From assembly GCF_988242995.1 (NCBI RefSeq), contig NZ_OZ547043.1: a stretch of 64,000 bases of DNA; one strand, 5' to 3'. The translations under genes were made by a program, and so were the position numbers. Below, one piece after another: positions 3,230 through 61,569 of the stretch. Position 1 is the first letter of the stretch, and every line of letters starts with the position of its first letter. A model generated the notes under the pieces. The model ran no database searches. It had not been told where the DNA came from and saw only the letters and a list, made by a program, of their open reading frames with translations.

Positions 3230-3245
3230 TGAAAAAATCGTGCCA
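3230..3245 (-). promoter_or_regulatory. Sigma-54 promoter glnHp2 (-24 TGGCAC, N5, -12 TTTCA)
   Basis: Minus strand reads TGGCACGATTTTTTCA with the GG and GC elements at correct spacing, about 55 nt upstream of the glnH ATG. glnHPQ is an established NtrC/sigma-54 operon. Confidence 0.6.
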
Positions 3246-3318
3246 GTTTTGCAACTCATTGATTTATCGAGATGCGGCAAAAACGTGATGCACGATTTAT
3301 AGGGCAATACCCTGAAGA

Positions 3319-3347
3319 TGCACCATTCTGGGGCACCAAACTGGTGC
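3319..3347. promoter_or_regulatory. NtrC-type enhancer sites (GCACCA-N3-TGGTGC palindrome and an overlapping TGCACCA half-site)
   Basis: tgcaccattctggggcaccaaactggtgcgc contains the dyad GCACCAaacTGGTGC, about 90-115 bp upstream of the sigma-54 element. Confidence 0.5.
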
Positions 3348-3507
3348 GCTAAAATTGTGCACTCAACACAGTGATTATTTAGCGTAAAACCTGATGAAAA
3401 AACAATCTTTATGTAACGATTGTGTGATGATGTGGATACAAAAAATTTACTTAATCAGCTGGAGATAGCAGATGGATGCACTAAATAAGTGCGTTGAGGT
3501 GGGCTGC

Positions 3508-44443: not shown

Positions 44444-44727
44444 AACTTCCCGACGCAAAGTGATTAAAAGGGAGCCAATACAGGCAAGTCGTTGAGAATA
44501 AAGTGCAGGTTAAACTGGGTAAAGCGGCATCGTCTTATTTCCCTCAAGCGGCCTGTTTACGGTGGGTGATTGTAACGGGCATAGGTTAAATAAAACTTAA
44601 AGAAAGCGTAGCTATACTCGCGATAATGTAAGAATGTGCTTAACCGTGGTTTCAGCTACAAAATTCGCTTTCTCGTTAGCTGCGCTTTTATTAAACTTTG
44701 CGCGATTATTATTGGCGAAGAAATTGC

Positions 44728-45960
44728 ATGCAAAATAAATTAGCTTCCGGTGCCAGGCTTGGACGTCAGGCGTTACTTTTCCCTCTCTGTCTGGTGCTTT
44801 ACGAATTTTCAACCTATATCGGCAACGATATGATTCAACCCGGTATGTTGGCCGTGGTGGAACAATATCAGGCGGGCATTGATTGGGTTCCTACTTCGAT
44901 GACTGCGTATCTGGCGGGCGGGATGTTTTTACAATGGCTCCTGGGGCCGCTGTCGGATCGTATTGGCCGCCGTCCGGTGATGCTGGCGGGAGTGGTGTGG
45001 TTTATCGTCACCTGTCTGGCAATATTACTGGCGCAAAACATTGAACAATTCACCCTGTTGCGCTTCTTGCAGGGCATAAGCCTCTGTTTCATTGGCGCTG
45101 TGGGATACGCCGCAATTCAGGAATCCTTCGAAGAGGCGGTTTGTATCAAGATCACCGCGCTAATGGCGAACGTGGCGCTGATTGCTCCGCTACTTGGTCC
45201 GCTGGTGGGCGCGGCGTGGATCCATGTGCTGCCCTGGGAAGGGATGTTTGTCTTGTTTGCTGCATTGGCAGCGATCTCCTTTTTCGGTCTGCAACGAGCT
45301 ATGCCTGAAACCGCCACGCGTATAGGCGAGAAACTGTCGCTGAAAGAACTCGGTCGTGACTATAAGCTGGTGCTGAAGAACGGCCGCTTTGTGGCGGGGG
45401 CGCTGGCGCTGGGATTCGTTAGCCTGCCGTTGTTGGCGTGGATCGCCCAGTCGCCGATTATCATTATTACCGGTGAGCAGTTGAGCAGCTATGAATATGG
45501 TTTGCTGCAAGTGCCTATTTTCGGGGCGTTAATTGCGGGTAACTTGCTGTTAGCGCGTCTGACCTCGCGCCGCACCGTACGTTCGCTGATTATTATGGGC
45601 GGATGGCCGATTATGATTGGTCTGTTGGTCGCTGCTGCGGCAACGGTTATCTCATCGCACGCGTATTTATGGATGACCGTCGGGTTAAGTATTTATGCTT
45701 TCGGCATTGGTCTGGCGAATGCGGGACTGGTGCGATTAACTCTGTTTGCCAGCGATATGAGTAAAGGTACGGTTTCTGCGGCGATGGGAATGCTGCAAAT
45801 GCTGATCTTTACCGTCGGTATTGAAATCAGCAAACATGCCTGGCTGAACGGGGGCAACGGACTGTTTAATCTCTTCAACCTTGTCAACGGAATTTTGTGG
45901 CTGTTGCTGATGGTTATCTTTTTAAAAGATAAACAGATGGGAAATTCGCACGAAGGATAA
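44728..45960 (+). CDS. mdfA: Multidrug efflux MFS transporter
   Basis: Start [40 protein letters not shown]...; 410 aa; matches MdfA/Cmr. Confidence 0.9.
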
Positions 45961-54010: not shown

Positions 54011-54487
54011 ATGACATCGCTGGTCGTTCCTGGTCTGGATACGCTGCGTCAATGGCTCGATGACCTGGGGATGAGTTTTTTTGAATGTGATAACTGTCAG
54101 GCTCTGCATCTGCCCCATATGCAGAATTTCGACGGTGTCTTTGATGCCAAAATCGATCTGATCGATAACACGATCCTGTTTTCTGCCATGGCGGAAGTCC
54201 GACCTTCAGCCGTATTGCCCCTGGCGGCAGATTTATCTGCCATCAATGCCAGTTCGCTGACCGTGAAAGCATTTCTTGATATGCAGGATGATAATCTGCC
54301 AAAGCTGGTGGTTTGCCAGTCTTTATCCGTTATGCAGGGCGTAACCTATGAGCAGTTTGCATGGTTCGTGCGTCAGAGCGAAGAGCAGATTTCGATGGTC
54401 ATTCTTGAAGCTAATGCCCATCAACTGCTGTTACCGACTGACGATGAAGGGCAAAACAACGTTACCGAAAACTATTTCCTCCACTGA
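54011..54487 (+). CDS. ybjN: YbjN-family protein (putative sensory transduction regulator)
   Basis: Start MTSLVVPGLDTLRQWLDDLGMSFFECDNC...; 158 aa. Confidence 0.9.
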   Translation: MTSLVVPGLDTLRQWLDDLGMSFFECDNCQALHLPHMQNFDGVFDAKIDLIDNTILFSAMAEVRPSAVLPLAADLSAINASSLTVKAFLDMQDDNLPKLVVCQSLSVMQGVTYEQFAWFVRQSEEQISMVILEANAHQLLLPTDDEGQNNVTENYFLH

Positions 54488-54761
54488 TAACTCCTTTCGA
54501 GTACGCAGTCGCTGCCGCAGTGACTGCGTGCTGCAAAATTATCTGCTGTTTTTAACCTTTTCTTAAAGATTATTTCACTTCTCTTGTGCCGATTTGGCTT
54601 TATCACATAGAGCAAATACGCATAAAAATTTGTTAAATACCGTTTTTTAATCCGAGCTATAGTCTCAAACCCTGGCTAAAGTTATTCTTGCGATGCTTTT
54701 ATATAGCGAGCAGTGCTGGCCGGGAGAGAGTTCTCTTTTCTTACACCGCGCCGATAAAAAA

Positions 54762-54781
54762 TATGCACGTTTATTGCATAT
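54762..54781 (+). promoter_or_regulatory. Sigma-54-like element upstream of potF (TGCACG-N4-TTGCA)
   Basis: atatGCACGtttaTTGCAtat has correct spacing and the -12 GC, but one G of the -24 GG is missing (TG). It lies about 55 bp upstream of the potF ATG. Weak call. Confidence 0.3.
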
Positions 54782-54837
54782 CTTTCAGTGTGACAACTTT
54801 TGTTCGTTTGTTAACGAACTTTCAGAAGGAAAGAGAT

Positions 54838-55950
54838 ATGACCGCCTTAAATAAAAAATGGCTATCGGGTCTGGTTGCGGGTGCTCTGATGGCCGTCTCT
54901 GTCGGCACGCTCGCGGCTGAACAAAAAACACTCCACATTTATAACTGGTCTGATTATATCGCCCCGGACACGGTGGCCAATTTTGAAAAAGAAACCGGTA
55001 TTAAAGTCGTCTACGATGTTTTCGACTCTAACGAAGTACTGGAAGGCAAATTAATGGCGGGTAGCACCGGCTTTGACCTGGTGGTGCCGTCAGCAAGCTT
55101 TCTTGAACGCCAGTTGACTGCGGGAGTTTTCCAGCCGCTGGATAAAAGCAAATTGCCGGAGTGGAAGAATCTCGACCCGGAACTGCTGAAGTTGGTTGCC
55201 AAACACGACCCGGATAATAAATTTGCTATGCCCTATATGTGGGCGACAACCGGGATTGGCTATAACGTCGATAAAGTCAAAGCGGTGCTGGGCGAAAACG
55301 CGCCCGTCGATAGCTGGGACTTGATCCTCAAACCTGAAAATCTGGAAAAACTGAAAAGCTGCGGCGTCTCTTTCCTTGATGCACCGGAAGAAGTGTTTGC
55401 TACCGTGCTGAATTATCTCGGCAAAGATCCCAACAGCACTAAAGCGGATGATTACACCGGACCGGCAACCGATCTGCTGTTAAAGCTGCGCCCGAACATT
55501 CGTTATTTCCATTCATCTCAATACATTAACGACCTGGCAAACGGCGATATTTGCGTCGCTATCGGCTGGGCAGGTGATGTCTGGCAGGCGTCAAACCGCG
55601 CGAAGGAAGCGAAGAATGGCGTTAATGTCTCGTTCTCGATTCCGAAAGAAGGGGCGATGGCGTTCTTTGATGTCTTCGCCATGCCTGCGGATGCCAAAAA
55701 TAAAGACGAAGCCTATCAGTTCCTGAATTACCTGCTGCGCCCGGATGTGGTGGCGCATATTTCCGACCATGTGTTCTATGCCAACGCGAACAAAGAAGCT
55801 ACGCCGCTGGTAAGCGCGGAAGTGCGTGATAATCCAGGGATTTATCCTCCGGCGGACGTTCGTGCGAAGTTGTTCACTCTGAAAGTGCAGGATCCAAAAA
55901 TAGACCGTGTGCGCACCCGCGCGTGGACCAAAGTGAAGAGCGGAAAATAA
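54838..55950 (+). CDS. potF: Putrescine-binding periplasmic protein
   Basis: Start MTALNKKWLSGLVAGALMAVSVGTLAAEQKTLHIYNW...; 370 aa. The track's 50-codon upstream extension is rejected. Confidence 0.95.
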   Translation: MTALNKKWLSGLVAGALMAVSVGTLAAEQKTLHIYNWSDYIAPDTVANFEKETGIKVVYDVFDSNEVLEGKLMAGSTGFDLVVPSASFLERQLTAGVFQPLDKSKLPEWKNLDPELLKLVAKHDPDNKFAMPYMWATTGIGYNVDKVKAVLGENAPVDSWDLILKPENLEKLKSCGVSFLDAPEEVFATVLNYLGKDPNSTKADDYTGPATDLLLKLRPNIRYFHSSQYINDLANGDICVAIGWAGDVWQASNRAKEAKNGVNVSFSIPKEGAMAFFDVFAMPADAKNKDEAYQFLNYLLRPDVVAHISDHVFYANANKEATPLVSAEVRDNPGIYPPADVRAKLFTLKVQDPKIDRVRTRAWTKVKSGK

Positions 55951-56044
55951 TCCGCAGTCGTAGATGCCGGACGGGCGCACCACGCCCGCCGGCAATTCGC
56001 ACCATTATGGTGCGCTTGCACACATTCAATGCCGGAGAGCAGCC

Positions 56045-57178
56045 GTGAATGACGCTATCCCTCGCCCGCAGGCGAAAACCCGTAAGGCGCTGACGCCGCT
56101 ATTAGAAATCCGTAATCTGACTAAATCTTACGATGGTCAGCATGCGGTCGATGATGTCAGCCTGACCATCTATAAAGGCGAAATCTTCGCGCTGCTGGGC
56201 GCATCCGGCTGTGGCAAGTCCACGCTGCTGCGTATGCTGGCAGGTTTCGAACAACCTTCTGCCGGGCAGATTATGCTCGATGGCGTCGATTTGTCACAGG
56301 TTCCGCCTTACCTGCGCCCCATCAATATGATGTTTCAGTCTTACGCGCTGTTTCCGCATATGACCGTGGAACAGAACATCGCTTTTGGCCTGAAACAGGA
56401 CAAACTACCGAAAGCGGAAATTGCCAGCCGGGTCAATGAGATGCTCGGCCTGGTGCATATGCAGGAGTTCGCCAAACGCAAACCGCATCAGCTTTCCGGC
56501 GGTCAGCGACAGCGTGTGGCACTGGCCCGAAGCCTTGCCAAGCGCCCGAAACTATTACTGCTCGATGAGCCTATGGGCGCGCTGGATAAAAAGCTGCGTG
56601 ACCGGATGCAGCTTGAAGTGGTGGATATTCTGGAGCGTGTCGGTGTGACCTGCGTGATGGTTACTCACGATCAGGAAGAGGCGATGACCATGGCGGGGCG
56701 CATCGCCATTATGAATCGTGGGAAATTTGTCCAGATTGGCGAACCGGAAGAGATCTATGAGCATCCGACCACCCGCTATAGCGCTGAATTTATTGGCTCG
56801 GTTAATGTCTTTGAATGTGTACTCAAAGAGCGCCAGGAAGATGGTCTGGTGCTTTATTCGCCGGGGCTGGTGCATCCACTGAAAGTCGATGTAGATGCTT
56901 CGGTGGTCGATAACGTGCCGGTGCATGTGGCGCTTCGCCCGGAAAAAATCATGCTTTGCGATCAACCGCCTGCTGACGGCTACAATTTTGCGGTGGGGGA
57001 GGTGATACACATTGCCTATCTCGGCGATCTTTCGGTGTATCACGTTCGTCTGAAAAGTGGGCAAATGATTAGCGCCCAGCTACAAAACGCCCATCGTCAT
57101 CGTAAAGGGTTACCGACCTGGGGCGATGAAGTGCGTTTGTGCTGGGAAGTGGACAGCTGTGTGGTGCTGACGGTTTAA
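56045..57178 (+). CDS. potG: Putrescine ABC transporter ATP-binding protein
   Basis: GTG start giving MNDAIPRPQAKTRKALTPLLEIRNLTKSYDGQ...; Walker A GASGCGKST; 377 aa. Confidence 0.9.
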   Translation: MNDAIPRPQAKTRKALTPLLEIRNLTKSYDGQHAVDDVSLTIYKGEIFALLGASGCGKSTLLRMLAGFEQPSAGQIMLDGVDLSQVPPYLRPINMMFQSYALFPHMTVEQNIAFGLKQDKLPKAEIASRVNEMLGLVHMQEFAKRKPHQLSGGQRQRVALARSLAKRPKLLLLDEPMGALDKKLRDRMQLEVVDILERVGVTCVMVTHDQEEAMTMAGRIAIMNRGKFVQIGEPEEIYEHPTTRYSAEFIGSVNVFECVLKERQEDGLVLYSPGLVHPLKVDVDASVVDNVPVHVALRPEKIMLCDQPPADGYNFAVGEVIHIAYLGDLSVYHVRLKSGQMISAQLQNAHRHRKGLPTWGDEVRLCWEVDSCVVLTV

Positions 57179-61528: not shown

Positions 61529-61569
61529 AGTGAATTTATATGCAATAAATATGATTAAATAATTTACAT
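61529..61569. promoter_or_regulatory. Candidate ArgR operator (tandem ARG-box-like sequences) upstream of artJ
   Basis: AGTGAATTTATATGCAAT and AATATGATTAAATAATTTACAT resemble the ARG box (TNTGAAT-W4-ATTCANW) and lie 70-110 bp upstream of the artJ ATG. Confidence 0.45.

Follow-up and report, generated by a model that had tools for sequence, protein, structure and literature searches.

A conserved, non-consensus sigma-54 element upstream of potF as the probable nitrogen-regulated promoter of the Escherichia coli putrescine-transporter operon potFGHI

The DNA analysed here, referred to as the window, is a stretch of 64,000 nucleotides from contig NZ_OZ547043.1 (RefSeq assembly GCF_988242995.1). 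It belongs to an E. coli chromosome and carries the gene order rimK-ybjN-potF-potG-potH-potI. The spacer between ybjN and potF is 350 nt long and holds a sigma-54 element. The features of this region to which we refer first are the following.

54762 to 54778, plus strand: sigma-54 -24/-12 element TATGCACGTTTATTGCA, with the -24 box ATGCAC at 54763-54768 and the -12 box TTGCA at 54774-54778
54789, plus strand: predicted sigma-54 transcription start, 19 nt 3' of the motif centre and 49 nt 5' of the ATG, placed by the rule of Bonocora Table 1
54838 to 55950, plus strand: coding sequence of potF, the periplasmic putrescine-binding protein
55966 to 55993, plus strand: GC-rich hairpin GCCGGACGGGCG-cacca-CGCCCGCCGGC just 3' of the potF stop codon, as read from the sequence

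The potF ATG (54838) lies 60 nt from the element and corresponds to position 893784 of NC_000913.3. The sequence of the element is identical in K-12 MG1655, and the ybjN-potF and potF-potG spacers show few differences from that strain, none of them within the promoter or NtrC-site features discussed here; experiments made in K-12 therefore apply directly. Of 5,426 complete E. coli genomes, 5,419 match the 381 bases around the element. Strains of E. coli were seen to differ at the element only in how long the upstream A-run is and in two spacer bases which are neutral for sigma-54. The GC-rich hairpin behind potF would be a transcript-end or stabiliser element of REP-like type. Another palindrome, the intercistronic one of the original prediction, is found directly after the ybjN stop codon (54495-54537, 21 nt, imperfect). 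Five of its arm positions differ from K-12, and it is kept in several genera as ...GCGCAGTCGCTGCC..., where it supplies second-best matches in the sigma-54 scan. It is probably the transcript-end hairpin of ybjN, though a T-run does not directly follow it.

The original prediction described the element as TGCACG-N4-TTGCA, with the correct spacing and -12 box and with one G of the -24 GG missing. TGCACG (54764-54769), TTTA and TTGCA (54774-54778) are present in this arrangement exactly once in the window, and ATGCAC-GTTTA-TTGCA aligns without gaps to TGGCAC-N5-TTGCW, so that spacing and -12 box stand as described. Concerning the -24 box, the GG doublet does read TG, but the mismatches total two, since the T in front of the doublet is changed as well, to A. 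The first G of the -24 GG is absent in 5 of the 135 ChIP-bound sigma-54 sites of E. coli (Bonocora et al. 2015). The -12 box with its GC doublet is invariant in 52 of 52 distinct orthologous sequences, and the spacing between the boxes is unchanged in all 54 loci which contain the element (see below). The start predicted by the rule of Bonocora Table 1 is at about 54789 (about 893735 in NC_000913.3), versus 54793 in the original prediction.

The exact pattern TGCACG-N4-TTGCA occurs once in the window versus 0.15 occurrences expected, and at least once in 14 of 100 shuffles; matches to TGGCAC-N5-TTGCW with at most two mismatches number 45, versus 44.9 expected. A sigma-54 position weight matrix (PWM) was built from the 134 other ChIP-seq-bound E. 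coli motifs of Bonocora et al. 2015. With this matrix the element scores 8.9 bits, which is rank 51 of 127,968 window positions, and outscores just 3 of the 134 training sites. The same scan places the known glnH site first and the ybjG/rcdA site second, so the matrix works. Judged on its sequence alone, the element is no better than chance. Both leading sites (OS06 and OS07 of Bonocora) are internal positive controls: the scans recovered the known glnHp2 box CTGGCACGATTTTTTCA on the minus strand together with the three overlapping NtrC sites that immediately precede it (3230-3361), and the ybjG/rcdA site TTGGCGAAGAAATTGCA at 44712-44728. One possible reading of the potF element is that of a functionless chance match: 51 window positions score as well or better, and near-consensus matches with at most two mismatches occur at the chance rate. 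This reading has to be weighed against binding data and conservation.

The 17-mer TATGCACGTTTATTGCA is site OS08 of the E. coli sigma-54 ChIP-seq map (Bonocora et al. 2015). The peak centre (892944) and the motif centre (892939) are 5 bp apart; occupancy is low, with a FAT of 2, the PSSM gives a score of 6.8, and the site is listed at 49 nt from potF. An earlier and independent sigma-54 ChIP-chip region, 892604-893381, also overlaps the element, and EcoCyc marks the OS08 site as a 'predicted' promoter. In vivo occupancy by sigma-54 is thus documented by published ChIP data from K-12, in which the sequence is identical. The sigma-54 site of potFGHI is therefore already known, from the 2015 ChIP-seq table and the EcoCyc predicted promoter, and the operon is a long-listed NtrC/sigma-54 operon.

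An RpoN gSELEX peak, the highest in the genome, was assigned by Shimada et al. to the ybjN-potF spacer and put at 892632, some 300 bp 5' of the element; the motif printed with it, TTTGCATGGTTCGTGGC, lies inside ybjN. In the window, positions 54356-54372 in ybjN read TTTGCATGGTTCGTGCG (ending in GTGCG; PWM score 6.4), which is essentially this motif and also carries T for the first G of the GG doublet. The peak falls between the ybjN site and the potF element. It is not counted here as support, since it may reflect either the element or the ybjN motif.

The comparative set consisted of 80 potF loci of Enterobacterales, one genome per species. In 54 of the 80, this element is also the top sigma-54-like match 5' of potF. 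Its distance from the ATG is 74-77 nt in most of the Enterobacteriaceae genera sampled and 81-124 nt in the rest, with 234 nt in one Buttiauxella. The consensus across loci is aaaatATGCAyg.tT.tTGCATa, and the flanks have diverged: the mean frequency of the top base is 0.86 in the element versus 0.61 in the flanks. The element is present in Escherichia, Citrobacter, Enterobacter, Klebsiella, Raoultella, Kosakonia and Leclercia, as well as in Phytobacter, Pluralibacter, Mangrovibacter, Siccibacter, Cedecea, Buttiauxella and others. It is absent from Yersinia, Serratia, Rahnella, Pectobacterium, Dickeya, Brenneria and Sodalis. In Salmonella the -12 box of the potF site is broken (TATGCACATTTCAGGCATG), and Yokenella has lost 2 bp of the stretch that separates the two boxes. 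This taxon pattern agrees with the conservation table S5 of Bonocora, where the scores are 8.1 in Citrobacter, 8.0 in Enterobacter, 8.0 in Klebsiella, 7.6 in Raoultella and 7.4 in Cronobacter, with Cedecea (6.7), Salmonella (2.6) and Yokenella (-1.1) at the lower end. Concerning Salmonella, Bonocora et al. list ChIP-qPCR primers for potF; Samuels 2013 does not mention the gene.

The more information a position carries in the sigma-54 motif, the better its column is conserved, with a Spearman coefficient of 0.80 in an alignment made without motif selection and 0.79 on the seven positions left free by the search pattern. The variable positions Y7, G8, T11 and T13 carry bases preferred by sigma-54 and show no mirror symmetry. 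The fixed position, the sigma-54-like conservation profile and the asymmetric preferred bases together are strong evidence that recognition of the element by sigma-54 is under selection. Two in vivo binding data sets cover the element, and its position is fixed and its core invariant in 54 loci of many genera whose flanks have diverged; conservation and ChIP data together have effectively refuted the chance match, to which we give next to no weight. As a separate observation, the Kluyvera and Pseudocitrobacter loci contain an extra near-consensus box, TTGGCGAG(A/G)TT(C/T)TTGCA, at -282 and -158 from the potF ATG, respectively. It lies upstream of the conserved element and has PWM scores of 15.8-16.6; Pseudocitrobacter lacks the NtrC dyad between potF and potG which is described below.

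Concerning nitrogen regulation, potFGHI is reportedly among the operons listed in Zimmer 2000. According to the authors of the ChIP study, none of the 15 described NtrC-regulated operons lacks a sigma-54 peak. Under nitrogen depletion the mRNA of potG rises 6.0-fold and that of potI 3.2-fold by RT-qPCR; Shimada 2021 attributes this induction to RpoN and NtrC, and the text cites mutant values for neither gene. The published nitrogen induction assigned to glnG thus concerns potG and potI mRNA, not potF. For potF itself, transcript and protein rise in an ammonium-starved co-culture, together with other nitrogen-scavenging genes. When sigma-54 overexpression was compared with deletion in nitrogen-replete medium, potF was absent from the changed genes, as expected for a silent closed complex, and this result gives no positive support. 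Other regulators, namely Lrp, ArgR and ArcA, are also present on the promoter region of potF in vivo or control it. A literature search for a mapped potF transcription start found none. The proposal that putrescine uptake is under nitrogen-limitation control, with which the element had been linked, is supported by the occupancy of OS08, the induction of potG and potI, and the conservation of the element.

The original prediction regarded as a weakness that no NtrC dyad was seen in 54560-54760. The absence itself is correct: the best upstream match has four mismatches, and none has three or fewer. The weakness holds for the upstream side only, as a dyad does exist in the potF-potG spacer.

55998 to 56014, no strand assigned: NtrC-type dyad CGCACCATTATGGTGCG, a perfect palindrome with two mismatches to TGCACC-N4-TGGTGCA
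56016 to 56021, plus strand: adjoining NtrC half-site TTGCAC(C), kept beside the dyad in most genera (spacers of 23 species)

The dyad lies 1.22 kb downstream of the -12 box; the potF stop codon is 48 nt away on one side and the GTG of potG 31 nt away on the other. At a limit of two mismatches, the 64-kb window has no NtrC sites other than this dyad and the known enhancer sites of glnH. Shimada et al. report a gSELEX peak of NtrC (95%) between potF and potG, about 40-50 bp from the dyad, as well as a positive EMSA with a 'potG probe', and interpret the spacer site as a 'potG promoter' in its own right. NtrC ChIP-seq of nitrogen-starved cells gave 21 peaks, none of them between glnH and rutA and hence none at potF. 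Overall, a two-mismatch dyad is found downstream of the element, with NtrC binding in vitro and no in vivo ChIP-seq peak.

The dyad is kept in the potF-potG spacer of most Enterobacteriaceae. Both the element and the dyad are found in 43 of the 80 loci, the element alone in 11, the dyad alone in 0 and neither in 26; six of the 11 loci with the element alone carry palindromic variants of the dyad with three to four mismatches. A site with at most two mismatches was found in the spacer upstream of potF in 0 of the 80 loci; elsewhere in the 6-kb loci such matches are few and lie far off or within genes. These counts lack phylogenetic independence, and only about three independent losses within the Enterobacteriaceae support the link. 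Salmonella, Yokenella and strain LSJC7, which are nested in the family, lack both element and dyad. In the E. coli potF-potG spacer and early potG we found no sigma-54-like box which the dyad could serve instead. The simplest reading of these patterns is that the dyad would act as the enhancer of the potF promoter, looping to it from about 1.2 kb downstream. Enhancers of glnA are reported to keep their function when moved by more than 1 kb, either upstream or downstream (Reitzer and Magasanik 1986).

A separate sigma-54 promoter of potG was considered and rejected; a PWM scan of 55600-56400 gave no more than 6.9 bits, and no plus-strand site in the spacer. In Citrobacter alone (four loci), a 4-bp insertion, TTAT, beside the dyad creates a near-consensus sigma-54 box, CTGGTGCGTTATTTGCA. 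About 86-88 nt separate this box (TGGTGCG-TTAT-TTGCA; PWM 14.8-16.1) from the stop codon of potF, and the right arm of the NtrC dyad serves as its -24 half. It could be a lineage-specific promoter of potGHI.

The dyad also bears on another explanation, namely that the sigma-54 holoenzyme binds the element and never fires, repressing or competing with a sigma-70 promoter of potF, while the nitrogen induction of potGHI comes from elsewhere, for example from an NtrC-dependent start near potG. Shimada et al. proposed 'repressive' RpoN promoters and a separate potGHI unit, and the expression of potF in ordinary media, under control of Lrp, ArgR and ArcA, implies that a sigma-70 promoter is close by. 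However, a search of the ybjN-potF spacer for sigma-70-like promoters gave no plus-strand match, over the element or elsewhere, and potF was not among the genes changed between sigma-54 overexpression and deletion. Also, the E. coli potF-potG spacer and the start of potG lack a sigma-54-like box; the end of the dyad, 31 nt before the potG start codon, leaves no room for a promoter; and the dyad co-occurs with the upstream element. We consider this explanation very unlikely.

The reading of the element as a sigma-54 promoter leaves one trait to be accounted for, the constancy of its non-consensus bases. The A and T of ATGCA are invariant in the 54 loci with the element, and TGGCA is found in no genome, although a single T-to-G change would improve the -24 box. 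Columns +1 to +5 and +13 to +17 are 100% conserved, partly owing to the selection pattern; the T at +17, after TTGCA, was not selected for and is present in 52 of 52 sequences. The core is therefore a perfect inverted repeat, ATGCA-N7-TGCAT, which is invariant across genera and lies within a longer repeat.

54757 to 54785, no strand assigned: extended inverted repeat AAAAATATGCA-N7-TGCATATCTTT containing the element, with 11-nt arms that are 91% complementary in E. coli

Sigma-54 alone does not explain the invariance of the non-consensus AT. The invariant ATGCA could keep the promoter weak and strictly dependent on its activator, or a second protein could read the ATGCA-N7-TGCAT repeat, for which ArgR would be the best candidate. 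In its exclusive form, the latter idea makes the element an operator of a dimeric factor (ArgR or other) reading AAAATATGCA-N7-TGCATAT, with sigma-54 binding as a side effect of the resemblance to the TGCA repeat. The repeat with its 11-nt arms and 91% complementarity is real, and the invariant A and T of ATGCA and T after TTGCA fit such an operator. Paired ARG boxes have inner halves 7 bp apart, as do ATGCA and TGCAT here; in most genera a conserved TGA completes box 1 (TGAmA-AAAT-ATGCA, with scores of 9-10.5 of 13); the potF promoter region is occupied in vivo by ArgR, as it is by Lrp and ArcA; and published comparative genomics predicted regulation of potFGHI by ArgR.

For ArgR, two 18-bp boxes (wnTGAATwwwwATTCAnw) 3 bp apart were searched for. 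The best pair of the window is AGTGAATTTATATGCAAT-aaa-TATGATTAAATAATTTAC at 61529-61567, in what we take to be the upstream region of artJ, and one of its half-sites is ATGCA, a further point in favour of ArgR. Against it, the E. coli pair at potF (54752-54790) is weak, scoring 15.0 of 26 and ranking 79 in the window, versus 20.5 for the top pair. The left half of box 1 reads ATAAA in E. coli, the right half of box 2 is conserved in no genus, and the A-run inside box 1 varies in length among E. coli strains. Conservation in the interior is asymmetric and sigma-54-like, and the occupancy by sigma-54 is measured, not guessed. An ArgR operator is also compatible with a sigma-54 promoter, as the sites may overlap, and does not exclude it. 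An operator in place of a promoter is unlikely in our judgement.

Other factors were considered for the repeat and rejected. The NsrR operator is an inverted repeat of the form 11-1-11, AAGATGCATTTnAAATGCATCTT. Its core spacing fits the element, and the arms match by hand at 8 of 11 and 6-7 of 11 positions, but the conserved T13/T14 and Y7/G8 are asymmetric; a literature search found no paper which links NsrR regulation to potF. The motifs of PurR, MarA/SoxS, Nac, PuuR, IHF, ArcA and NtrC, compared with the element by hand, show no fit beyond the TGCA cores, and those of them that fit the E. coli element fail in other genera.

Between the predicted start and the Shine-Dalgarno sequence lies one further conserved feature.

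54802 to 54819, plus strand: predicted potF leader RNA hairpin GTTCGTT-tgtt-AACGAAC, whose five outer pairs covary and whose loop UUGUUAAC is conserved

The hairpin has a stem of 5-7 bp and lies about 8 nt upstream of the Shine-Dalgarno sequence. Its five outer pairs occur as UA, CG, UG and GC types, with 15 double-sided changes among 32 distinct sequences; the stem variants across genera are GTTCG/CGAAC, GTCCG/CGGAC, GCCCG/CGGGC and GCGCG/CGCGC. The covariation score was reached by 0 of 500 shuffles, and all slid controls were far lower. The covariation and the G-U pairs show transcription of 54802-54819 into plus-strand RNA, in keeping with a start 5' of this stretch. The hairpin could be a translational or stability control element. 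A search of Rfam with the leader found no family, the sole result being meaningless (E = 0.5). The sequence GTTAAC in the loop resembles an ArcA half-site.

Compared with the Ntr promoters glnAp2, glnHp2, glnK, nac, astC and patA/ygjG, the potF promoter (potFp) has the same -24/-12 architecture with exact spacing, is bound in vivo as a silent closed complex, and is induced when nitrogen is limiting, an effect attributed to rpoN and glnG. Its function also fits the nitrogen-scavenging theme of the Ntr regulon, putrescine uptake standing beside the patA-mediated catabolism of putrescine. It differs from these promoters in the TG, preceded by A, at the -24 GG, and in the position of the NtrC sites, which lie about 100-150 bp upstream in the Ntr promoters, whereas the potF dyad lies about 1.2 kb downstream, in the operon, and has no ChIP-seq call. 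A single off-consensus box is also seen in glnHp2 (TGGCACGATTTTTTCA), whose -12 box is defective and which is nevertheless bound and used; in potFp, however, the defect is in the -24 box and is conserved across genera. At the relA P(sigma-54) inside rlmD, NtrC likewise acts from neighbouring-gene or remote sites, with a site 649-838 bp upstream of the start codon (NtrC ChIP-seq study). In contrast to relA, the candidate enhancer of potFp would lie downstream, inside its own transcription unit.

The closest likeness to the element itself is found in the ygfT site OS32, aatATGCcCGTTTATTGCATc, which is about 20/21 identical to it; the two have the T-for-G at -24, the spacer and the T following TTGCA in common. 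OS32 is weakly bound (FAT 3; Bonocora et al. 2015) and lies on the minus strand, about 40 nt upstream of ygfT, within the NC_000913.3 segment 3030850-3031150. Unlike the potF element, it is poorly conserved and belongs to the ygeV/xdh purine-catabolism cluster, presumably under another activator. The chance of such a pair arising among 135 sites is roughly estimated at about 0.02. The likeness may point to a shared extra factor or to a class of tolerated -24 variants.

Taken together, we regard the element as potFp, the nitrogen-regulated and NtrC-dependent sigma-54 promoter of the putrescine ABC-transporter operon potFGHI, most likely a functional one; we hold this with good, though not full, confidence. 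Sigma-54 RNA polymerase, whose occupancy in vivo is seen in the ChIP data, would form a weak and silent closed complex on ATGCAC-N5-TTGCA. Under nitrogen limitation, phosphorylated NtrC would open this complex and start transcription from about 54789, and the transcript would pass through the conserved leader hairpin into potF. The NtrC enhancer would not lie upstream; it would most likely be the dyad at 55998-56014, acting by DNA looping over about 1.2 kb. A bolder version, which we put forward tentatively and rate as possible rather than probable, is that of a crippled sigma-54 promoter with an in-operon enhancer, in which ATGCA is kept and never becomes TGGCA, and in which the invariant AT may belong to an overlapping half-site for ArgR. 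If this were true, NtrC would loop back to the promoter, every transcribing polymerase would cross its own enhancer, and the nitrogen and arginine control of putrescine uptake would be tied to the same 17 bp.

We know of no native downstream enhancer within its own transcription unit that has been shown for an E. coli Ntr promoter, and potFGHI may be a natural example of such an arrangement. A downstream enhancer, if true, would change searches for the NtrC regulon, which usually look upstream only, and would reinterpret the published 'potG promoter'. Also, the potF element means that a site which fails in a consensus scan can still be a conserved and occupied sigma-54 site.
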